DNA of 63,544 bases, filler included, from Intoshia linei (taxonomy: Eukaryota > Animalia > Orthonectida): the NCBI GenBank assembly GCA_001642005.1. It is 9 parts of 9 records of this genome, joined end to end, with 100 filler letters (N's around TTAATTAATTAA, not from the genome) between each part and the next. Parts side by side here need not be neighbours in the genome. Positions count along the whole stretch, not along the records: positions 55,581 to 57,548 come from LWCA01002447.1; 8 more parts are not named here. One strand, written 5' to 3'. Below are positions 28,603-57,961 of this stretch, piece after piece. Every line of letters begins with the position of its first letter. Within the stretch, counting starts at the first letter, position 1. Made by a program: the position numbers and the translations under genes. The notes under the pieces are model-generated. The model made no database searches and was not told the DNA's origin. It saw only the letters and a program-made list of their open reading frames with translations.

Positions 28603-29999
28603 GAAACTCCAGTATTATAAGTATGTAGATTCTGAATTTATAATTTTAAATTTAGCATAAAAAATGAAACTATATAAGTGACAGAACATAATCTCATTAT
28701 AAATGGAGTAATCCTCACACTACACTGTATTAATCCAGTAGAGAATTAAATTTTGTTTAGTAGATTCAATTATTTTCTATTTTGAAACAATTTCACATGT
28801 AAACAATTTTTCATTAAAATTTGATATTTATTGAATATAATTAAAATATTTTGATACGTTTTATAAATATAAGGTTTAAAAATCTTGTTATCTTTAAATA
28901 TTTGAAATTAATAATATTGACACTTTATTCAAATTTATAAGTTACGTCAAAAATTAACTGTACGCATGATAGATTATTAAACAATTAATTGACGTGCAAA
29001 ATTAAAAATTATTAAATTGAGTTAACAATTACCTACGCGTCGTTGTCAATTTCTTTAATTAAATTATCACCGAGTAAAACAAACATTATTAATTTGTAAT
29101 ATAAATTTTCATGCCATTTGTGATTCTCTAATCAATCGTTAACATTTCATTGTGTTTTTTAGCTCAATTTTTGCATTTTAATATTAGTTAATTATATGGC
29201 CGTACTATTGAGATTTTCAATATTTTTTAGTTTTATTTTTCATTGTTTACCAATTATTCATTCAATTAAACACAATAAATTAATTTTAGGCACCATTATT
29301 TTAAAATTAATTGTTTTCAATTGATTTTTTTGTTTTAATATTGTTTTAATTGTTTTTGTTGAAATATCTTTTATTGTGTATTTAAATTTACTCAATTTTT
29401 TGGTATTCATGATTATTATAGATTTGGATTTTGATCAATTTTATTGTACAATTTAATATATTGATATTATGTTACTTGAAACATTTAAAGTTGGTAATAA
29501 TAAATATTACTTTTCAATTAAAATTAATTGTAATTTTTTTACATAAAAATAAGTTATTTAACTTTTTACACTTTTTTAAAATTACATTAAATCAATTCTA
29601 TTATAAGGCTATTAATTAAATATTATTGATTTTAGTCTGTTTGGTTTTTTATTATAATGTGATAATAAAATATAAATAATGTATTTTATAATAGTGTAAA
29701 TTATATTCCTAAAGTTGCTCTTAAGGTCCACATTAAGGACTCCTTAAACGGTTGAGATTATGCAGCAAAGTATATACTATGAAATATAATAAATAATAAT
29801 TTTAAATTTTAAAATTAATATAATTAGGGGATTTACCCAGAAAATTTTTTGACAGTTAAGTTTGAATTTTACTTTTTATAATAATAATATTTTGATTTGA
29901 CTTTGCCGAAGTAACTTTGCGCATCGAACTTTTTTCCTTAAATATTTTTTTATAATTTGATACAAATACAAATAACGATTACATGAATTGTGTAATCCT

Positions 30000-30750
30000 T
30001 TACTTGTATAAAATTGAATTTCTGTGTGTTTCTGTTACTGTTTATTTAAAAAATTGACAGTTGTAGAATTAAAAAACCCAATTTCTAATACAGTTTTTCC
30101 CGGGACGTGTTTTTATCTTTTTTCATTTGCAGAATTTTAATTTGTCGGGGTCAAACACCAAATTTTTTCTTTTTTGTTTAAAAAAATCAACACAAAAATT
30201 TAATAAAACTTACATTTTAGGACGCGTTTTAAAATCATTACCATTGTAGTAAACCTCAGCCTCAGAAACAGACACCTTCATGGTTAAAACCACAAATTAG
30301 TCTATATTTAAAAAATGAAAATGAACTAAAATTTTATAAAACATAAATTCTGGGATACTTTTTAAAATCATAAGCATTATAATAAATAAAACTCTCAAAA
30401 AAGTGCATTTTCACGATCAAAACCATAGATTACCAATTTTTAAAAAATTAAATTAGTCATAGAATTTTAAACAAAATTACAACTGATACAGTTTTATATT
30501 TAGTGAATACACAAAAAAATTCAATCTGACAAAGTGACGCCTTCACGGTCAAAAAATCACTTTAATATCCATTTTTTTTTATTTCGAAACTATTTTATTA
30601 AAAATAAATTTGAAATAATCAACGGTCCTAAAATTCAAAAAAAAGATTATTGTGATTCAGCTTATTCCAGTTGATATAAATACAAAATTTCAACCCCAGT
30701 AATCTACGCATCTCCAGTTAAAAATAATTTTTAATATACAACCAATGTGT
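30000..30750 (+). repeat. Dispersed repeat family copy with ~130-bp internal subrepeats
   Basis: GGTCAAAACC(A)CAAATT-like units at ~30149, 30281, 30415, 30547; shares the 3' block CTTATTCCAGTTGATATAAATACAAAATTTCAACCCC with ~38590. Confidence 0.75.
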
Positions 30751-36826: not shown

Positions 36827-39800
36827 TTATAAGTGACGAGTGAGTTCTTTTCTTGTAATTATTCCACAAATATCATTTTCTTGGGTTACAATAAGGTGTC
36901 GTAGTCCCAATCCGCGGAATAAACGAAATACTCGAGGTAATGGTGTAGTCTAAAATGTATATATTCTATTTTTTTGTAAATGTAAATGTAAAAGTATACA
37001 ATTCATTGTACACATATCAATACAAATAAAATCAAAATATTTTAATCGAAAAAAATTTAATCTAATCAGAGGTGTGGAAAGTGCAGTCTTATTGACGATT
37101 TGATGAGGCCTTCTGAACAATTTCAATTATTTTTCATTTAAAATTATTTTATTTCCTTAAGGATAGGTAAAATTAGGGTTTTCGTTTGGAGTCAGATAGA
37201 CGGATTTTTTCTTTAAGGATTTGTAAAATTTTCGTTTTTTTCTCATAAGATTTTATTAAATTGAATAGAATATGCTAAAAATTTATCATTCACCCACAAT
37301 TATCAACAATTTTCGTATTCACGTCCTAATAAAATTATTCACCCCATGAGAATCAATGCTGTATTTGATTAAATTTTATTTAGAAAGGTGCGGCCTTCGA
37401 ACAGTAAATGCTTGCCCAGTGGGAGTCCCCACCTCTGATCTAAACTAACAATAATTTTTTATGCTCGGTTTAGAAAGAATTTTTCTTAAAATTAATTGAT
37501 AGAAAATATTTTAAAAAAATAAATTTAGATAAATTTTTATCAATTTTTTATTTATTTTAAATTAATTCTCTATAGAAAACCACTTAAATTCTTGCTAATA
37601 CAATGTATTATAAATACATGTACATTTATTTGGAAAAATGTTTCAAGTTTCAATTAATAGTGAAAATTACCAGAGGTACCGTAAAAGGTGTCGGATTTCC
37701 AAATTTTGTAAGTTCTACATATAAATTATCTTCATTGTCCACGTCGCGGCTGATTTTTTTAGTTTTAAATTTCCATTTATTAAAATCAGACAATCGAATC
37801 CTCTATATTTTTTAATATAAAGTGTACATTGTACAATATACATTAGGGTAGGGTTACTTTAAGTGGTAGTTTTAAATGATAAATGTGTAATTGTAAATTT
37901 GATTTTGCGTAGTGTTAATAAAATTGCCCTTAAAAATAATTTTATACTATGTTTGAAAATTTAGATTTAATCTTGATATTGAGACTTTAATCAATTATTG
38001 TGGTTATAATTGATTCATTCTTACTTATATAATACGCTTTGTTTGTCTGTGTGTGTATTATCATTTATTTCAATAACTACCAGTCTTAGAATTTTATAAA
38101 GTCCACATTTCAATTACAGTTTTTTCTGGGAGTGTTAGCAGAACAAATTTCAACCTCCCAAACTCACATATTACAGGTCCAAAAACTCAATTATCCTTTT
38201 TTTTGAAAATCAACCGAATTCAAGAATTTACAAAAATAAACACTCTGATACGGATTTTAAAATTATAAATATTATCATAAATTTAAATTTCAAAAAAATA
38301 TATGTTCATGACCAAAACCACAAATTAGCCTTTTTTTAATGAAAACAGACCTAGAAATTAAAAAAATGTACAGGTGGTACAGTTGTATCCTGTTAACACA
38401 CACAAAAAATTCAATCTGAATAAGTAACGCCTTCACGGTCAAGAAAGCATTTTAGTATGTATATATTTTTTTCCGAAATATTTTACTAAAATGTTATTAA
38501 AAGTTAATTAATTATGTTTTATTAAAATTTTACAAAAAATGTGAAATAATTAACAGTCTGAAAATTAAAAAAAAGATTATTCTGATACAGCTTATTCCAG
38601 TTGATATAAATACAAAATTTCAACCCCTGAAATCTACACATTCCCGGTGAAAAATAATTTTTAATATATTATCAACCAATAATTTTCAAATATTTCGATT
38701 AAAATAAAAATTGAAAATGTAAATATTGATCCTACAATTTCAAAAAAAATGTGAATTGAACGTCTACACACTGCAGGTAAAAATATCCTAAAATAACACC
38801 TGCATTAGGGTCAGAGCCGAACCTACCAATCTCGAGGGCACCGAAAATGAATAATAGTTATGATATTCAAGAACAAATTTTTTTTTAATACTCAATATCG
38901 TAAAATGGTGACCTCATCTTTCTTCCAGAAGAGTGGTGACGATACGGTAGATTCGACAATGATTAGGGTGTCTAGTAGACACTGTCTACAGTTGATGTAT
39001 TTTCTAAACTTACAAAAAACCATTTTGAATGTGAAAGCCTATTGTGATTTTATCAATTAAAATTTTTTTGCAATTATTGAAATTAATATAAAAATATAAA
39101 GCATAACTTTAATTTAATTATTATTAGGTTTGGGTGATTTATATGGTTATGGTATTTTCGATGGGTAAACAAGTTTTTTTTGTACATTTTGATTTTTTAA
39201 ATTCAGTTCTAACGTATTTATTTTGGATTTTAATGATGGTTGAATTTATCATAATTACACTTAAAACTATATATAGATCAACCTCAAAACAAATTTCGTA
39301 CAACCAGAATAAATGAGGTTATAAGGTAATATCCTTATTTAATATATATTAGATAATTTACCTTATGATATATCATATCATTTTGACTTTTACGCCTATA
39401 AATTCCTTTTTCTAAAATAACTTCAAGTTGATATCGTAGAATGATTCCCCTTAGTAAGCCGTATTTTGAAAAATTATTAAATTTCCTGTTGATTTCAATG
39501 CCAGTAGAATCAACATCATCATTCTCATTTGTTGATGAATTTAAAAGTTTAACTGAACGTGAATTTCTGTTATCCAAAAATGTGGATGGAGCTGTTTTTC
39601 TTCGTTTTAAATATTTTTTTAAATTTGTTCCAGTATATGAATTTAAATTTACAAAATTGTCCATATTATTGTTCAATTTTCTTTTTCGCACTATGGGAAA
39701 TGCTGAATGGCTGTATAATGTGAGTATTTCTTTTATATAGGAAACTGATTCCAGTTCATTAAATACTATCACTGGATTACTCATTACGCCTCTAAAATTG

Positions 39801-42800
39801 TATTTTTTCAATTTCAAAAATGTGTTTCTTCGTGTTTAAAATGAACACTGGACGTATTTTTTAACACAATTAAAAACTAGACTTTAAAATTAAATTTACA
39901 AACAATTAATAAGAAAAAAGTAATAAAAGAAATACATGTATTCCATGAGTAAACAAGGTTCACTTGCGTATCATTGAAATATGCAAGCTTTTTCAATTAA
40001 CATTTTCAAAAATGTGCTGAAAAATAGTACTCTTTTCTCTTATATGGGTAAGAAATTTATCTTTTTTTTCATTTGGGGTTAAGTAACAATTTTTTAAATT
40101 CAATATTTTAATGTTTTTAGACCTACAAACGTTTAATCAATGAAAATTTTTTCAGTTTACAATTTTTCGGTTACGAAAAATGAATATATGACCACTGGTC
40201 AATGACCACTTATCATTAGCGAACATTAATTTGAGCGATACAATACTATATTTTGTTAATTAATCATATTATTGATTTATTGACCAAATTTTTGTGGGTT
40301 TATTTAGGGAAAAATTTTTGACTCAATTTTTAAAGATTTTCAAGATAATTTTAGGATCAAAATATGGTATGTTTTTTAAGAGAATCTATTTTTCACCCAT
40401 CTTTAAAATTTTATGTAGATAATTTTTGGACTAACATTTTATAGAGTTTTTAAGGGAACTTTAAAATTTTCCCTAAAGAAACCCACAAAAATTACATGAA
40501 AAAATAACTAATATGATATATATAATATAAATTATTAAAATTGATGATTATGTCGCTCAAATAAATGTCAATTTAGAGCAGTAGTTCCCAATTGGTATCC
40601 GTATCCGTACACTATTTAAATCGGAAACAACTGCTCTAAAGAATTGATGTCTATAATTAATTGAAAATTATACATTTAATTTTAATTTAAATCTTACGCC
40701 GCTGTTAAATTGTACAAAAGATTTGGTGGACTCCAAGGTAAAAATGGTATTTTCATTAGTCGAATGTGTTCATCATAAAGTCCCTAAATTTAAATTAACA
40801 TAAATATTAAAAAAATTGCATTTTTAATTCTGTCGTTATATCACACAATAATTTGCAAATTAGTTCGTTAAATTAAAATTTTACAGAGTTATTGACTTAT
40901 GACTTATATATGCACTTTTGGAATTTTCAGATTATTTTTTTAATAAACCATAAAGGAAAGGATTTTTTAAGATTTTTTTTAGCAAATCTTTGAAGCGGAA
41001 TTTTCAGATTATATTTTTAACCAAACTTTAAAGACATGATTTTTGAAGTTTTTTTAACAAAAAACATTGAACAATAATTTTCAGGTTATTTTTTTAACCA
41101 AATCTTAAAAGAGAGGGTTTATTAAGGTTTTTATTAATCAATATGTTTTAGTTTTATATATCTGGTTACATTTTTTATAGCTCATTTCAACAATCCTTCT
41201 AACCAGAGCCAAATATACCGTAGTCCGAGACCCTTTTCGGGGCCTCGATTATTATTTTTGCAAAATGGGGGGATAATTTTTCCCAATTAAATGTATTTGC
41301 AAAAATGATATCATAATTATTTGTGTAATAAATTTAAAATTTCAAGTTAAGACTATTGAAGATGTCACTAGGGCTATATGACACTACACATCGTGTGCCA
41401 AAAAAATTTTTATACGCCCTAGTTTTCATTTTCTGGTGGCCTATAGATTTGTATATTGGGCTCTGTCGCTAACTTTGGATAAATATTGAATTTTAAATTT
41501 TAAATTGAGCAAATTTTAAAATGTAGCATGCTTATTTTCTTAATTAAATTTCAAATACTGATTTCTACTATAAAAATAATAATACAGACCACAGTCTGCT
41601 GTGCACAGGTTTAAATTTCTAAACAAGACTAACTGGTGGTTTTGACCGTGAAAGTGCCAATTCTTGAGGTTAAATTTGATCTTAATTTTGCTTTTGAAAT
41701 TTCTGGCAGTCAGTTTTCTACACTAGTCGCTACACCGTGCACAACTACAGACAGATACAGAGTTTTAAAAACAATTACTATATACAATAATATGTACAAT
41801 TTTTATAATTTGGGAAAGGTCATATGAGGCGTGACAAACCCATGGCGCATTGGCAATTTTGATAAATTGAAATTTAAATTGTAAGATACATTTTCTTTCA
41901 GTTTCGAACTTTTCGAATCTACTGGAAATCCGTTCACCTTATATTAGTTAATATTTAATTAACAAGATAATCCTAATCATTGATTTACCCGCACTTTAAT
42001 AATCTCTATTCACTTAATAATTAAGTCTTAATTAATTAATGATTTATTATATTTTCTGAAGAACATTATTACTCTCTCATTGACACATTTAAATCCAAAT
42101 ATTGGAAAACTGGCAAGATCAAAACAACCCTAAATGTCTCATTAAACTTTTAACGATTTTAATTAACACTTTAGTTAATTTTAATAACGACACTTTTAAT
42201 TAATGACGACTACATAGTATATCTTAATATTGCAAACAAATTAATATAATTTATATTTCTACACGTATAAATTCTATTAGTAGCTGGAGTTTCACAAAAA
42301 ATTCGGGCGCATCTGAGATCTAATGATAAAAATGTGGCGCATGGTATGTAAAAGGTTGACCAACCCTGGTTTATATTATTATAATCATAAATAATTCAAA
42401 ATGCAGTTTTTAATAATTTTGTTTTTATAAATTAAATTTACCAACGTGAAGCACTGTCCAACCATTTTAGCAACAATGAGAACAATGACAACAGGCAAAA
42501 CAAAAGTAATATCTCCTGTACATTCAAAAAGAATGACCGATAAACTGACCGTCATTCGTAAATTCCCACCAATTTGAGAAGCTGCGCCAATAAGCGCATA
42601 TCTCCCTACATTAACTTGCAACCAAGGTATAATAACATTTACGCCATGAGCAACGAGACGCCCCCAGCAAGCTCCAACAAGTAAACACGGAATAAATATT
42701 CCACAAGATACACTTAACCCATAAGTCCAGGTAGTCAATAATGTAAATGCAAGCAGTAGCCATATTAATTGAATAATTGTGATATAATTCATTGGTGCAT

Positions 42801-45123
42801 GTAATAATTGAATCAAAGACCCTTCAGGTGTTTGAAAAAGTATAGTTGATATGGAATTGTGTGAACCCAATGTACAGTTTGATCTAGTATGGTAATTTCC
42901 GTAATGTTCTTCGTCCGTTATGACACCGTTATCTACAACGCAATGAGTGATTTTTAAAAGCAAATAGGGTATAATTCCACTGACAATGGCTACAATAAGA
43001 CACTCAAACATTTTAAATACTTTGTATTGAATATATCTATATTATACTTTGTATATCATTGTATAGAAACCTACTTTACCTCATTCGTAGTTTAGTAATT
43101 TTCACATTCATATAATTAATGATGGATCCCAAAATTCCTCCTAATAGAGTAATTTTTATATTGATCAAATTATAAGTTATAAATCTACCTACCAATTATT
43201 CCCATTATGAGAAATATCGGAACTTCAATGACATGAAATTGATAGTGATAATCAAAAACTCCAAAGCTGATTAAACCTAAACTTTTAGGTATACATAATT
43301 AATACAATGTACAATGTAATTTTATCGAAAAAAAATAAATCTTACCGGGGTTGGATAAACTATTCAGATGGCCGTAAAATGCGCTAACTAATAAATTTAC
43401 TGTAAATGTAGCAGTAATGGAGGAAAATAACATTTTAGATGTTAATAAAGGATTGCAAAAACTAGTTCCTTCTTCTAAACTAAACATGACACCACCGATT
43501 GGTGCTCCAAAAGCGGCTGATACCTAAAAGTTTAATCAATTTAGTACTTTTTTATTTATTTCTAATTTTATAAATATAAATTTTAAATTAATGAATCATA
43601 CTCCGGCTGCGGTACCGCACGCCACAAAATCTCTTTTTTGTGCATCTGACTGTAATGATTTTAAGATCTAAAATTTATCTACAATAAATGGCTAATTATT
43701 TTAAACCTTTAGATCCATTCTGAAAAATTTAGATTTTGTTTGTGAAATTCCTCCAGCAATTATTGCACCAGTATGTATCATCGGTCCTATATTAAATTAT
43801 TATTTATGTAGGTTTTAATTATTTTATCAAAGATTTTATTATTCCGAAATTGAGTCCTTCAAGGTCAAAAAATAAATTCCCCCTTTTTTACGTACATTAC
43901 AGTCAACTTTGTTTTAAATAAAATGTACCTTCTTTACCACACATCAATCCTCCAATAACTGAGAAAACAATTCCAAAGGTTTTACAAATTAACGTTTGCA
44001 GTTTTAGAAGGCCTCTGATGCGGACTCCATTGAGATAAGATTTAATATTTGGTATTCCACTTCCAGCAGCTTGTGGCTAGGAATTAAAAAATTTAAAAAT
44101 AAGTCAAAATTGGCAACCCTAAACATGTGCGATTTTTTAAATAAAAAATTACCATCCAATATGTCACTATTAATGATCCAATTAACACAAAAACTATGTT
44201 TATAGAAATCCAAATGGTCAGGGCTTTAATTTCACAGTAAACGGAAGTACAATGGTTGAATTCTAAATTGATTAATGGTAAATTATATTCAATACACAAA
44301 GTAATACATGCAATAATTGATTTATCCACAAAATTGTTCATACACAAATGCAATTAAAAAATTAAAAAATTCTAATTTGGGTAAAATATTTAAATTTTCA
44401 TAATTTGAGAGTACCTATAACTCTACAAAAATCGTAACTTATATAATATGCTACGCGATTTTTGTTTGTGTGTGTTATGGTTTATTGAAATAACTACCAG
44501 TCTTAGAATTTTTTAAAGACCACATTTCAATTACAGTTTTTTCCGGGATGTATAAGATAAATTTTAACCTCCTAATTTCATATCTTACAGGTCAAAAACC
44601 CCAGTTGTCCATCTTTTTGAAAATCAAATGAGTTGGAGAATTTAAAAAAATATATAGGTTGATGCGGATTTTAAAATCATAAACATTATCATACATTTAA
44701 ATTTAAAAAAATTATATCTTCAGGGCCAAAACCCCAACCGATTTAGTATTAAAATTGCCTTCAGTGTTCACTGTTTATTATTCATTTATTATTATACAGT
44801 TATTATTTACAAACTTAAAAATCAGATGGTTGATGATTATATTTATTCCATTACAAATTGTAAATGAATGCAATTGTAAATGAAATGCATTAATTGCAAA
44901 ACAATGATAAAATACATTTATTACCTTTCGATATTAATTTATATTTTAATTTTGTTCCATATTCTATGGCTAGTTCTACTAACGTAGCCACAAAAGCAAC
45001 CACAACACCAATCAAAAATAAAATACACCATTCGGACATATTTTGTTTCAGTAATTCTGTTTTCGTTATATTTTTTCTATTTTGTATATACATTTCGTTC
45101 TCCATTGTATCATAATTATGTGA
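36827..45123 (-). CDS. CLCN7: CLC-7-like (CLC-6/7 branch) lysosomal H+/Cl- exchanger, ~13 exons, first exon missing or uncertain
   Basis: Spliced translation has AAGSGIP, GKEGPMIH (gating Glu), [28 protein letters not shown] (proton Glu), GIFIP, RMTVSL, GLYDEHI..P.LPW, CBS1 ([21 protein letters not shown]) and CBS2 ([33 protein letters not shown]). Stop at 36827-36829. Confidence 0.93.
37067..37437. mobile_element. hAT-like MITE in CLCN7 last intron
   Basis: TIRs CAGAGGTGTGGA / TCCCCACCTCTG; ATCTAA on both flanks. Confidence 0.65.
38022..38690 (+). repeat. Dispersed repeat family copy (Helitron-like 5' end)
   Basis: Begins ACTTATATAATACGC..GTTTGTCTGTGTGTG, same start as the 44437 copy; ~130-bp subrepeats. 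Confidence 0.75.
40222..40568. mobile_element. Foldback-like element with ~100-bp degenerate inverted arms
   Basis: ACATTAATTTGAGCGATA...TTTTTGTGGGTTTATTTAGGGAAAAATTT pairs with AAATTTTCCCTAAAGAAACCCACAAAAA...TGTCGCTCAAATAAATGT. Confidence 0.6.
40920..41140. repeat. Degenerate tandem repeat, ~77-bp unit x3
   Basis: AATTTTCAG(A/G)TTAT(T/A)TTTTTAA recurs at ~40922, ~40999 and ~41076. Confidence 0.65.
41204..41465. mobile_element. MITE (hAT-like), same family as 31087-31358
   Basis: TIRs CAGAGCCAAATATAC / GTATATTGGGCTCTG; 8-bp flanks CTTCTAAC / TCGCTAAC. Confidence 0.7.
44437..44740 (+). repeat. Truncated copy of the dispersed Helitron-like repeat in a CLCN7 intron
   Basis: Aligns by eye to 38022-38320. 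Confidence 0.75.
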
Positions 45124-45802: not shown

Positions 45803-47289
45803 TATCATTCAACTTCAATAGTAATAATGGTGTTCCTAAAATTAAAAAACGTAATTCTTCTGGACGTCCAAAAACAGGAGTTAGTGATTTTGAAGTGTCA
45901 AAAAATTTATTTATTCCGGAGAATTACGAAAATGTCATAAAAGTTTGGAGAAAATTAAACATAGAAACACAAAAAACTGAACTATTGATTACAGAATTCA
46001 ACTGTCTAAAAGTAGAATTTATAAAAGCTTTGAATGATTTCAAATTAGTTGTCCAATAGGGTGTCTACTTTTTTAAAGATCGAAAAGTATATTTGCATAT
46101 AATTGTGTTTTTATGCACTAATCACGAATATGTGAAAATTAATTCATTTAATTAAAATTAATCTCGCCTGAAATTAAAAACACTTGATATTTTTATTTTT
46201 AAAAATGTGAACTATACTTTATTACACTAATTTATTTATTAATCTTATAATTAATAATATAAAATTGAAATGAAGTATTCAAAAAAAGTATGAGGTGGAC
46301 GCGTCCTTATGGAGTAGTGGTTAGTGAACCGCTTAGTAATTTATCGAGATTACCTACTATAAAAAAAGTAATGGGAAAATATCATTTTTTAGATATGGAA
46401 AATAACTCAGAATGAAAATCTTATTACTGTGATAAAACTGCAATAGAACTATATTCTTTATGGATGAAGGGCACTCTGGGACCGATTCCATTGGGATTGG
46501 TAAAAGTCAAACTTAAAGATTTAATGAACAAGTATGCGCTCTATCTAAAAAATTCGAACTACCATCAAAAATTGAAACAAAATTGGGATAACATATTAAT
46601 GATAAAAGATAAAAAAATATAACTTGACGAAGATGAAAAAAATTTTGATTTCCGTTTTGAATCGAAAGTAGAGCCATATTCTGACAATTCTTCAGATGAA
46701 AATTATTATCCTTTCTATAAAGTTTCTACAAATAAATCAATAAAATGTGAGAAGTTAGCTAAAGCCTCATTATCTACAAATNNNNNNNNNNNNNNNNNNN
46801 NNNNNNNNNNNNNNNNNNNNNNNNNTTAATTAATTAANNNNNNNNNNNNNNNNNNNNNNNNNNNNNNNNNNNNNNNNNNNNACAGTATTTAATTAATCTT
46901 GTTACATTTTTTATTGTACGTTAAATAATTAAAACGAAAAATTTTAGCTAATAGACTAATAAAAAATACATAAATGATGAAATTTTATCCACTTTACTGT
47001 TCTAATTAAACTTAAATTAATTATTGTTTAAATACTATATTTAATTTGAATAGTTTTCATTTTATTTTGTTTACAATATTAAGTATAATATCTTGAGTAC
47101 AAAAACTTTACTATTTATAATTTAATTTTGCAAAAGTCAAACACAAAATTTTAATTTGCAAACTCAAATTCAATTTTGCAACTAAGATATCAACTTTTTA
47201 TTTATATAATGGAATAATCGCTTTACAGTAAAAAGTAATGTGATATGACGGTTCCATTTGAACAAGTTTGGGAACCACCACTTTAAAGG

Positions 47290-49215: not shown

Positions 49216-49574
49216 NNNNNNNNNNNNNNNNNNNNNNNNNNNNNNNNNNNNNNNNNNNNTTAATTAATTAANNNNNNNNNNNNNNNNNNNNNNNNNNNNN
49301 NNNNNNNNNNNNNNNGCAATTTAACCTTTAATTTTAAGGTGTTACCTACCGTTTCTATAGTTTTAAATTCTTTATCTCGCCAACTTTTTCTAAATCCCAA
49401 AAATGGCGAATTATAGAGAGAATACTGTATGTTTATTCGCATCATTTAACGTCAATTGACAATTTTTTAAAGTTTAAAATTGAAATTATTTACTTTAAAG
49501 GAATCGAAATTTGCATTAATTTATCTTTTTTACAAATTTTCAATAAAAAATTAAATTTAATTTCAAAGATCAGA

Positions 49575-54253: not shown

Positions 54254-55939
54254 TGAACATAATAATTAATATAACTAACTTAACATGTTATGATTCACAA
54301 AAATGAAATCGTTACCGATAAAATACCTAGATTTTGAATCAGATATCTTATCCCCCGTGGTTATGATACTGTAAAACTATTTTGTTTTAAAGTTGAAATA
54401 TGTATTGCAATGTGAAAAATGTTGAATTTATGACTCATAAATAAATATGATTAGTCTTGTCAAATACAGTGCTAGTTAGAATAAATCACACGACCCTAAT
54501 TTTTAATAACTTATTATCGAAATTTTTCATTTGAGAATTATACTGTGCATTATCAAAGTAATTAACGTTAGAAAAAAGAAAAAGTATTGAATTCACCATA
54601 ACCATAATTTGTTCTCCTTAACTGACTCAAGTACCCAAAATAAGAGGATTGTTAATTTTCAAAGAAATATGAAATTCTAGTTCTAATGACTCGTTAAATC
54701 TCTTCGAAAAATTTTTACGTTATTTTTAGATAACTTTGTTAATTAAAATTAATTAGTTAAAACTAGTTAACTTAACCTTACAAATAAAACAAGTTATAAA
54801 AAATATTTTTTATATGTCGATCAAGTCTGATCTCAATACGGTATTGAGTCTTTCACTTTTATTAATTGTGCAAATGTAAGAACATTATATTAATTTAAAA
54901 AATAGTTTTGATCTGAAATGAGTGAAACTAAAAAAGTTATTCAGTTTCACATCTAATACGTTTTCGAAAATAAAGACAATGTTATATATTTATTGAACTT
55001 TTTAAACTCAAAAATATGGGAAGTTGAGAAAAAAAGAAAACTTTTAATTAAAACATAAATTTTTTAAGAACATAACTACATACCAAAAGACCTTTACTCC
55101 AAATTTATTATGGGTAAACCTTACAAAAAACAATTTATCTGCGAGACATAGATAGTCAACCATCAAAAATTCATGGTCAAATTTGTGCTACAAAATATTT
55201 CTTTATTTAGAAATATAATGGAGTCTTTTCATTATACATTTTCATTATTACCCAGCGTATAATAAAATTATGTAAAGTAAAAAAATGAAATAGATAACCA
55301 ATATTAACTTTGCGTCAAAATATATTCAAGAATTAAACAAACATCTACACATGTTAGATATTTTATTTTTCCAAAACAGTTTACATGAAATTGGACGATC
55401 GCCAGTTCATAAATACTTATAATAAAATTCAAAACTATGTCAACATTTCATATATTTTATTTCAAATTTAGTTATCATTCNNNNNNNNNNNNNNNNNNNN
55501 NNNNNNNNNNNNNNNNNNNNNNNNTTAATTAATTAANNNNNNNNNNNNNNNNNNNNNNNNNNNNNNNNNNNNNNNNNNNNATACACATTTGTCCATATTT
55601 CGTAAAAATAAAAAAATAACGCACTTACAATAAAAACGACATTACTTATGAAACGATTTAATAGTTTAAATATTTCCCTACATGTCTAATTTCGGAATCA
55701 ATTGAGATAACGTTATTAACATGTGTACATTGTGTACATCTTGCGGTAATATTTTTTCTTCAGAGGCAATTAATTTATGTGAACAATTTCTTATAATGTC
55801 TTTATGGTATGGAACTTTATTCATGAGAATATTAAAGAGCTTAGCAGAAATTTTTATACATGTAATGAGATATGGAGTCTAGTTTTGATTTCTGTAATTT
55901 AGTAATTTAGTAATTTCTGACATTATTATATCGATTAGT

Positions 55940-56600
55940 TTAGAAGCGATGCAAGGCAGAACCTGTTCTTAATGGCGGATTTTGGTTTATGGTCTCTATG
56001 TTAGTTGGTTAAAGATTAAATATTTTTGATCAAAGTATGATGTAAATTAGTGTTAGGATCTATGAACCAATGTATACGTTTAAGAAGCTTTAGACTTTTA
56101 CTTAAGAGATCATAATTTGAGGTACGTTCCCACTTCTTGAAGACGGATGTACTTCCTGAAGTAGATGATCCCAAGTATGGAATACAATCACCCAATAGTT
56201 TTGTTTTTATTCAATCTAGGACATGTTATTAAAGTCACATGTGATCTGTTATTATCTAAATGAGAACATTTATTAATTTGAGGCAATGGAGTGAACATTT
56301 CATAGGGATGTGAAACTGATTCCAAGGAGAGGTTTTTCTCATGATCTGGTTCTTAAGTCATCTGCAAATTTTGATGAACAATCCCACATGTTGTAAATTT
56401 TTTTTTGATTGTTTTGAGGTTTTTGATTATTAAAGCTTTAGCTTTGATTAATCTCAGATATACAATGGTAGAGAATTTTATTGAGAAAGTGAGTCTAATA
56501 GTTTTTGCATTTTGTATTGTACAATATATCGAATCAGTGTATCTATATAGTGTAGACCAAGAAACTAGATATAAACCTAGGGAAAAAGAGTTTTATCTTA
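55940..56600 (-). pseudogene. Endogenous viral element: fragment of a rhabdovirus-like (Mononegavirales) L polymerase, end of RdRp through PRNTase capping domain
   Basis: Minus-strand translation across frameshifts: LFFPRFISSF / IQNAKTIR / MWDCSSKFADDLRTRS*EKPLLGI / VSHPYEM / GDCIPYLGSSTSGSTSVFKKWER / IHWFIDPNTNL...NI*SLT / RTGSALHRF, collinear with vesiculovirus L motifs. Confidence 0.9.
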
Positions 56601-57161
56601 TATATTTATATTTATAGTTTCTATATTTTATTTATTTATTACGGAATTTATTTTGAAGTGATTTAAATTCATATTCGTCTAAACGTTACATTAATTTATG
56701 TTAATATAGTATGATACAAATTATGAATTTAATTAAATTATCGAATGTGGCTCTCTGGACTGCAGAATCTTGACTCGAAGTTCTGCTTTTCCAAACGCCT
56801 GTTGATATCGACACTTAGGCGTTGCTTTTCTAGTACGATCTTTAACACGTTTGCAAGAATTGTTTGATTGAAATCAAGATGTTCGGAAAGATTTGAATTT
56901 GTCACTACCTTTCCAGAGATTACAACTCGCCCGATGTTCGATCTCTTGTGTCTTTATTGTGTTGAATGTCATTGTTGTGGTGTGGTCGGCTGCGCTAATT
57001 GCTGATTTCAACCTAGAGAATTTTACTTATTCGACCACATAAGCGATTACATTTAAGGTCCCAGTGTGTGCATTACGGTGCGGATAAAGTACGAGAGTAC
57101 CGTTGTGTTGCGTGCAAAACGGAACGTACTGATTTGAATTTGACATTATAAATATATGTAA

Positions 57162-57290
57162 CTAGCTTGGGAGTTTTGTACTACGTACAAATAGCACTTA
57201 GGTCTGTCAAGGGTTTTTTTATTATACGGAAAAAATAAATTCACGTTGAAAATCTCACTTAAAAATGCTACTATTATCTATTATCAATGT
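57162..57290 (-). mobile_element. Helitron-type 3' terminal copy
   Basis: Reverse complement ends GTGCTATTTGTACGTAGTACAAAACTCCCAAGCTAG|T with the shared upstream block. Confidence 0.68.
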
Positions 57291-57399
57291 TTTGTTTTGT
57301 TAACATTTGCGTAAAGAATTTAAAAACAATTTTTATCCCATTTTTTTAATTTATTAGACAGAATGTATGTATAATATTAAAAATAAAGTAAAAATAGTC

Positions 57400-57548
57400 C
57401 AATCCTAAAAATTAAATTGCCATAAATAGCATAAATTTTAGAAAAAATAAAATTATAAAAAATATATTGTCATTTTTAATGTGATAACATCTATTATCAA
57501 TTTAATAAATACTTAAAAATACCAATTATGTATAAATAATTAATTGAA
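57400..57548 (-). repeat. Dispersed repeat shared with ~63-150 and 18993-19060
   Basis: Reverse complement matches AATTGGTATTTTTAAGTATTTATTAAATTGATA...AATGACAA and ...ATTTATGCTATTTAT...TTTTTAGGA. Confidence 0.65.
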
Positions 57549-57961
57549 NNNNNNNNNNNNNNNNNNNNNNNNNNNNNNNNNNNNNNNNNNNNTTAATTAA
57601 TTAANNNNNNNNNNNNNNNNNNNNNNNNNNNNNNNNNNNNNNNNNNNNTGTGAAGTTTTTTCTGGCTTACAAAAAGTATTTTAAATTTAATTTAATTTAA
57701 TTTAAATTTTAACGTAAGATAATCGGTTCTAGTATACATTAATGTATTTAATAAAATAAATTTCAGGACAATCTGAAAATTAAGTAGTAAAATAATTATA
57801 AAGAGCCAATTATAGTAAAAAGTATTTAAAACGGTATTTAAAGTTTTAAAAATATAAAAATAAATAATTTACATATTTACGCAAAGGGGTACAAAAATTA
57901 TTCTGTAAAATAAATACTTACAAAATATGATATAAAACATTAATGTACATTAATATTATAG

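Follow-up and report, generated by a model that had tools for sequence, protein, structure and literature searches.

On their minus strand, positions 55922–56605 hold the decayed remains of part of a rhabdovirus L gene, namely the end of the polymerase domain and the capping domain. The analyzed window is a 63,544-nucleotide stretch of DNA composed of nine separate records joined by N-linkers; the record containing the fossil comprises only positions 55581–57548 (1968 bases), and because the window consists of separate records, neighbours across the linkers are unlinked. We consider it likely that this broken L fragment, located between host repeats, was copied by reverse transcription in an old germline infection, decayed neutrally, and is now included in a host transcript that is spliced, non-coding and antisense to L. 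The initial annotation had proposed a fossil capping-domain region of a rhabdovirus-like L gene integrated in the genome. Its identification as a decayed and integrated fragment is borne out by family matches, collinearity, reading-frame breaks, a common host repeat, and linkage to host repeats on an additional contig. The features of the fragment are as follows.

55922–56605, minus strand: decayed rhabdovirus L fragment of approximately 680 bases, with the end of the RdRp domain and PRNTase motifs A–D; equivalent to approximately residues 1034–1264 of Joinjakaka virus L and 1022–1250 of Himastelon rhabdovirus 1 L.
56019–56210, minus strand: 64 codons without a break, the longest such stretch, in which PRNTase motifs B (YLGSST) and C (W) lie.
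55943–55969, minus strand: RTGSALHRF, catalytic motif D (HR), with a stop immediately after it.
Near 56557, 56396–56414, 56317–56338, 56193–56226 and 55973–56006, minus strand: frameshifts in the frameshift-aware alignment.
56339–41, 56016–18 and 55940–42, minus strand: in-frame stops; one more at 56001–03 is conditional on frameshift placement.

Translation of the minus strand locates all motifs named in the initial annotation where it had placed them: FPRF, QNAKTIR, WDCSSKFADDLRTRS*, SHPYEM, PYLGSST (56180–56160), IHWF (56075–56064) and RTGSALHRF (55969–55943). Two of the similarity checks that it had proposed, a search with an mRNA-capping profile and a frameshift-aware comparison with viral proteins, gave positive results. 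With stops read as X, one minus-strand frame matches the Pfam family PF14318 (Mononeg_mRNAcap; E=4.9e-10, 39.7 bits at a cut-off of 22.2), and the remaining two of the three frames of this strand have no Pfam match. The top PDB matches of the same frame are the L proteins of rabies virus (E=2.3e-10) and VSV (E=2.8e-10), followed by two weak rows (E=0.029 and 0.36); for a second frame VSV L is ranked first (E=0.011), rabies and VSV L again being the ranked pair. The frameshift-aware alignment, with an X at each break, is collinear over 222–230 codons (56605–55922) at 37–39% identity. Joinjakaka virus L scores 281 in this comparison, and the null maxima are 44 for 110 other tiles of the window and 46 for 200 shuffles.

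A full HMMER search with the 64-codon open stretch yielded 49 matches at E<=0.001 among 1.84 billion representatives, and the L-like region is present in 46 of them; the top match (P0122) and two others were set aside as multi-stretch matches without the L region. The homology to RNA viruses is thus significant and exceeds that to cellular and TE proteins, as in a non-retroviral EVE. In IMG/VR four loci were found, namely Joinjakaka virus (L001), a distant L (L002) and two weak matches (L003 and L004). No match was obtained for the 64-aa open stretch by word-index search of proteins up to 2000 aa (0 of 25 candidates). A metagenome scan was likewise negative (0 of 481 candidate stretches), and so was a scan of viral contigs that used Himastelon L as query (0 of 5). 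We rejected the idea that the viral homology continues beyond the fragment, as the flanks score level with shuffles (22.9 vs 23.2, 28.3 vs 28.9, and 24.3 vs 22.9). A tblastn search of the window with 12 L proteins and one glycoprotein detected no further viral pieces.

The fragment is broken, as had been described, and the exact counts have changed: about four frameshifts and five stops in the initial annotation are replaced by five frameshifts and three or four in-frame stops, whose exact positions vary with the guide protein. A contig of run X3, which comes from a different sample and study than run X1 considered below, aligns over 55939–56121 with one difference and no gaps. Since it carries the frameshift near 55973–56006 and the stops at 56016–18 and 55940–42, these are not assembly errors of the window; this independent confirmation covers one of the five frameshifts and two stops. 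Among 40 near-invariant columns of L, seven are altered in the fossil, and the mean in exogenous viruses is 0.7–1.4. A rough simulation of random decay fits best at 0.06–0.10 substitutions per site, with a plausible range of 0.04–0.15, which suggests nucleotide decay of approximately 4–15% after insertion. At usual invertebrate rates, such decay would correspond, as a rough and uncalibrated figure, to millions of years.

According to the motif definitions given in PMC4705655, PRNTase motifs A–D of the fossil are collinear; motifs B, C and D are intact, and both a stop and a frameshift interrupt motif A. Downstream of 55922 no signal for motif E rises above the null. The order and spacing of motifs A–D are the same as in the PRNTase domain of Mononegavirales L proteins (PF14318; VSV L, 5a22; rabies L, 6ueb). 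In contrast to a working PRNTase, the fossil has neither an intact motif A, nor a detectable motif E, nor the rest of L, and five frameshifts and three or four stops leave no open frame for a working enzyme. With the damage to motif A, the stop directly after HR and no recognizable motif E, the fossil cannot encode a working capping enzyme.

The setting of the fragment was analyzed using its own record and contigs of the same locus from other runs. The following features surround the fossil.

55581–55712, strand not assigned: high-copy host repeat at one end of the record; summed contig depth in X1 is 960–2146, compared to 15 over the fossil.
57161–57288, minus strand: host repeat whose 3' end is Helitron-like, with a hairpin at 57191–57177, then CTAG followed by T at 57165–57161; approximately 555 bases from the fossil.
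Beyond the Helitron-like repeat, onward to the record end at 57548: high-copy repeat sequence.
56741–57145, strand not assigned: GC- and CpG-rich island (41.5% GC, 22 CpG) located between fossil and Helitron-like end; X2 contains 179 nt of it unchanged.
56953–56741, minus strand: open frame of 71 codons inside the island, without a family match.

The initial annotation had argued for integration from a Helitron-like repeat family on the same contig. The window is not one contig, and the relevant unit is the record 55581–57548; the repeat does sit on that record, where its hairpin and terminal CTAG plus T were found at 57191–57161. A hairpin followed by CTRR and T is what we take to be a Helitron 3' end, and the label "Helitron-like" is based on this 3' end only. 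The hairpin end is present at eight loci on six of the nine records, one of which also bears the chloride-channel and Ig-domain genes of the host; the hairpin is followed by an exact CTAGT at five loci, by a one-mismatch variant at two, and by neither at one. On the fossil record this end faces the fossil from 555 bases away, and the fossil is therefore outside that copy.

In run X1, which possibly is the window's own sample, a single 1622-nt contig spans 55634–57250 in the order repeat, fossil, repeat, at a depth of 15.2; relative to the window it has 8 substituted letters and 7 gap letters. Run X2, which like X3 belongs to study P2, contains 179 nt of the fossil's flank with no difference. 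Pieces of the locus were found in samples S1, S2 and S3, three samples labelled organism A, and among the pieces listed none covers the entire fossil record. In run X4, from the same sample as X1, the fossil is uncovered, a gap that counts neither way. The viral fragment is thus DNA joined to host sequence, with repeats on both sides in the X1 contig and a repeat common to five other records. Neither a target-site duplication nor an RT element was identified at the site. Frames in the flanks have no Pfam match above the cut-off (0 of 12), and a search of the Atlas with the 71-codon frame returned nothing. Between 55802 and 56676, the six listed differences between the X1 contig and the window are all transitions, and X3 agrees at the one that it covers; this implies two or more haplotypes at the locus, or else errors in the window at those sites.

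The best named HMMER matches of the fossil are triaenorhabdovirus 2, Himastelon rhabdovirus 1 and Beihai dimarhabdovirus 1, all three assigned to Betaplatrhavirus in the ICTV list (PMC12451637). Among 206 scored proteins, eight of the top ten are Betaplatrhavirus or unnamed members of its clade, and two more clade members have ranks 23 and 25. The genus, which in the same source includes Himastelon rhabdovirus 1, psilorhabdovirus 1/2, sphaeridiorhabdovirus 2/3, triaenorhabdovirus 2 and Beihai dimarhabdovirus 1, gives the best frameshift-aware scores (303, 298, 297, 290, and 290). Its known members are exogenous viruses from cestodes and trematodes, and the fossil is only 34–40% identical to them on a long branch, compared to 49.5% within the clade. 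The unnamed Logan L proteins P0126, P0127/P0160 and P0188 fall within the betaplatrhavirus clade. The partial unnamed L protein P0143 has the fifth-best score against the fossil, yet groups elsewhere. P0104, an L-like protein of 1219 aa on a 369-kb moth contig, is probably another EVE.

The phylogeny of the repaired peptide, also suggested in the initial annotation, places the fossil within rhabdovirus L trees and outside Alpharhabdovirinae. This holds in four of four trees, one FastTree reconstruction of full L, which retained redundant lyssavirus rows, and three site-mixture-model trees of the region, based on a guide-neutral reading with 34 of 230 positions masked. One of the region trees used 52 of approximately 200 L-like proteins, another dropped 24 listed rows, and another had 24 rows. 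The branch parting the fossil from Alpharhabdovirinae has support of 98/94, 99/94 and 94/94 in the three mixture-model trees. The fossil is placed inside the Betaplatrhavirus clade in two trees (FastTree, and the tree with alphaplatrhaviruses omitted, with support of 99/94), and below it in the two region trees that include alphaplatrhaviruses, in both of which it is drawn to this long outgroup. A single clade with Betaplatrhavirus is not rejected (p-AU 0.25). Groupings with vesiculo- and spriviviruses (p-AU 0.005) and with hapaviruses (p-AU 0.009) were rejected. The comparison with vesiculovirus L made in the initial annotation thus holds for the family and fails for the lineage, as the vesiculo/sprivivirus grouping is rejected and the top scorers are Betaplatrhavirus. 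As judged from these scores and trees, the donor rather likely belonged to the platrhavirus side, where it would represent an unsampled lineage outside any named genus.

A donor among dimarhabdovirus-type alpharhabdoviruses, with the platrhavirus-side placement produced by long-branch or composition attraction, is a possible but less probable reading. The branch of the fossil is long (1.9–2.2) and AT-biased (FYMINK 0.38 vs approximately 0.29); the top identity (41%) is reached with a copepod virus and with an unnamed L that is partial; and the AU test does not reject a sister position to 18 dimarhabdo-type rows (p-AU 0.115). Mean identity is flat, 38.0% to 10 rows of the betaplatrhavirus clade and 37.4% to 38 rows of the alpharhabdovirus side. 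The well-supported separation from Alpharhabdovirinae in all three mixture-model trees and the rejection of both the hapavirus and the vesiculo/sprivivirus groupings count against such a donor. As the nearest viruses come from flatworms and the record is short (1968 bases), one could also suspect that it belongs to another organism sequenced along with the host, such as a co-parasitic flatworm or the animal that the parasite lives in, or that the contig is chimeric. We regard this as very improbable, since the repeat family is common to five other records including the gene-bearing one, flank GC agrees with that of the window, the locus is represented by pieces in all three of the samples labelled organism A that are named above, and the X1 contig ties the fossil to repeats on both sides.

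An observation absent from the initial annotation, and likely an addition to it, is a candidate spliced transcript antisense to L, defined by two features.

55864–56121, plus strand: span of the 221-nt X3 contig, a putative spliced RNA antisense to L.
55902–55938, plus strand: skipped stretch of 37 nt (GTAATT...TTAG), missing from the X3 contig; a likely intron.

The X3 contig consists of a block of 183 nt (55939–56121) and a block of 38 nt ending at 55901; because these sum to 221 nt, the length of the contig, there is nothing between them. The skip has GT..AG ends, the size of a host intron and no microhomology, as in a spliced transcript, and only 0.5–0.7% of random skips in the record would have GT..AG on that strand by chance. 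Since GT..AG is on the plus strand, the RNA would be antisense to L. The acceptor is within virus-derived sequence, and the donor is past the point up to which homology can be detected. On the spliced strand, no ATG frame is longer than 53 codons. These observations refer to one contig of depth 3.05 with a short side of 38 nt, aligned at 85% likeness; none of the runs listed for the locus is on record as RNA, which counts neither way; the kind of run X3 is recorded as "?", so that its RNA nature is deduced from the splice pattern, and, contigs being strandless, the strand follows from the splice signals. From these signals, we consider it probable that the 37-nt skip is an intron of host size, removed from an RNA that runs antisense to L. 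Such an RNA would most likely arise by read-through, either out of the adjacent repeat or from a locus further upstream.

The alternative that the fossil is silent, and that X3 is a DNA run in which the skip reflects faulty assembly or an allele with a genomic deletion, is unlikely. It would be in line with the "?" recorded for X3, the single contig at low depth, and the start of the skip inside a short 8-nt tandem; on the other hand, 37 is not a multiple of 8, the length fits host introns, GT..AG ends without microhomology are rare by chance, the two X3 blocks account for the complete contig, and the X1 contig crosses the stretch and retains 55902–55938. Slightly more doubtful still is an analogy to mosquitoes, by which the fossil would be retained as antiviral memory, with the spliced antisense RNA serving as a piRNA or siRNA precursor against related rhabdoviruses. 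Antisense orientation, splicing and the repeat-rich setting resemble the mosquito pattern as described in 10.1101/2022.08.22.504762, and the presence of the locus in two studies with few differences favours retention; decay of approximately 8% since insertion would weaken pairing with a living virus, however, and low-level read-through accounts for the X3 contig too. As with the antisense nrEVEs in core piRNA clusters of that source, a viral fragment is likely read antisense in a host transcript from repeat-rich DNA, but here it is one fragment on a 2-kb record.

The preferred reading, an insertion that decayed and is now read in antisense, can be outlined as a sequence of events. During an old infection, a host retroelement RT would have copied viral RNA in the germline, a route likely by analogy with established knowledge of nrEVEs, and the viral cDNA would have been inserted into repeat-rich host DNA. 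The inserted L fragment would then have decayed neutrally. Antisense RNA may enter it from the low-coordinate side, most simply by read-through, so that today the fossil would be read only within a spliced, non-coding host RNA antisense to L. A role of this RNA in small-RNA defence is conceivable by analogy.

Rhabdovirus EVEs are well known in arthropods (PMC2987831, PMC10675110 and PMC10974309), and transcribed EVEs are described in PMC10956553. Like the arthropod elements, the fossil is an intronless fragment of a single gene with frameshifts and stops amid host repeats. In contrast to them, it resides in an invertebrate with a compact genome and short introns, probably not an arthropod; its donor appears to belong to the platrhavirus side; and its splice acceptor was apparently formed from antisense viral sequence. 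A gene of a viral RdRP family in the predicted proteome of Intoshia linei, mentioned in PMC6396948, would be partial prior art if the host is an orthonectid. No report of a platrhavirus EVE was found in the literature searched, whose coverage leaves out most subscription journals. Decayed rhabdovirus L fragments themselves are common in arthropods; what would set this one apart is a deep, unsampled donor lineage, a probably unusual host, and the candidate spliced antisense RNA.

According to PMC9241645, platrhaviruses are known solely from metagenomes, either of flatworms themselves or of animals infested with worms; the study argues that these flatworm viruses are basal to vertebrate rhabdoviruses, including lyssaviruses, and detected none of its viruses in the genomes of flatworms. 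Unlike metagenomes, a germline fossil pins down which animal was truly infected and sets a lower limit on the age. Should the host prove not to be a flatworm, basal members of the family would have a wider host range, and an unsampled virus lineage would be predicted that could be looked for in host RNA. Furthermore, the likely spliced antisense RNA offers a single locus for probing EVE-derived small-RNA defence outside arthropods, and such transcripts can be mistaken for viruses in transcriptome mining. We speculate, as a long shot, that this is the first platrhavirus-side genomic fossil, in a parasitic spiralian other than a flatworm, for instance an orthonectid, that it would document a further phylum infected millions of years ago, and that a splice site built by the host from viral sequence lets the fossil be expressed as an antisense RNA for an antiviral small-RNA pathway outside arthropods.

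The host is an animal, as indicated by Ig domains of the I-set, V-set and C2-set types, and the GC content of the window is 26%. All eight introns of its chloride-channel gene have GT..AG ends, with lengths of 39, 43, 52, 69, 76, 78, 142 and 662 nt, six of them within 39–78 nt. Judging by 18S signatures and genome traits, it is rather likely an orthonectid, as a fast-evolving spiralian, and not an arthropod, a nematode or a neodermatan flatworm. In PMC6543705, orthonectid introns are mostly longer than 30 nt with a median of 57, and the median in Dicyema sp. is 27; the short introns in the window agree with these orthonectid sizes, short of proof.

The CLC chloride-channel gene (42430–45120, minus strand) has an open frame of 506 codons after removal of the eight introns, and its CBS-type end is probably near 39335–39835; an Atlas search with this chloride channel pointed to no host lineage. 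A multi-Ig-domain gene with I-set/V-set and C2-set domains and short introns is at 26057–28614 on the minus strand; we presume that it is nephrin/KIRREL-like. A partial rDNA unit (15374–18892, plus strand) includes the 3' part of 18S, 5.8S and the 5' part of 28S, with insertions that split the Rfam matches and very short spacers of approximately 115 and 125 nt; this unit can help to place the host. The eight linkers between the records are identical (44 N, a 12-base all-frame stop, and 44 N) and occupy 5781–5880, 15274–15373, 18893–18992, 24979–25078, 46782–46881, 49216–49315, 55481–55580 and 57549–57648. A frame with a DNA-binding HTH of the Tc5/pogo type at 22712–23164 on the plus strand (PF03221, E=9e-5) is a transposase relic. 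A second dispersed repeat family, with copies of 300–600 bases that are 73–81% alike, was found at 11958–12477, 30333–30746, 38023–38680 and 44437–44737, and a 77-base tandem at 40921–41133.
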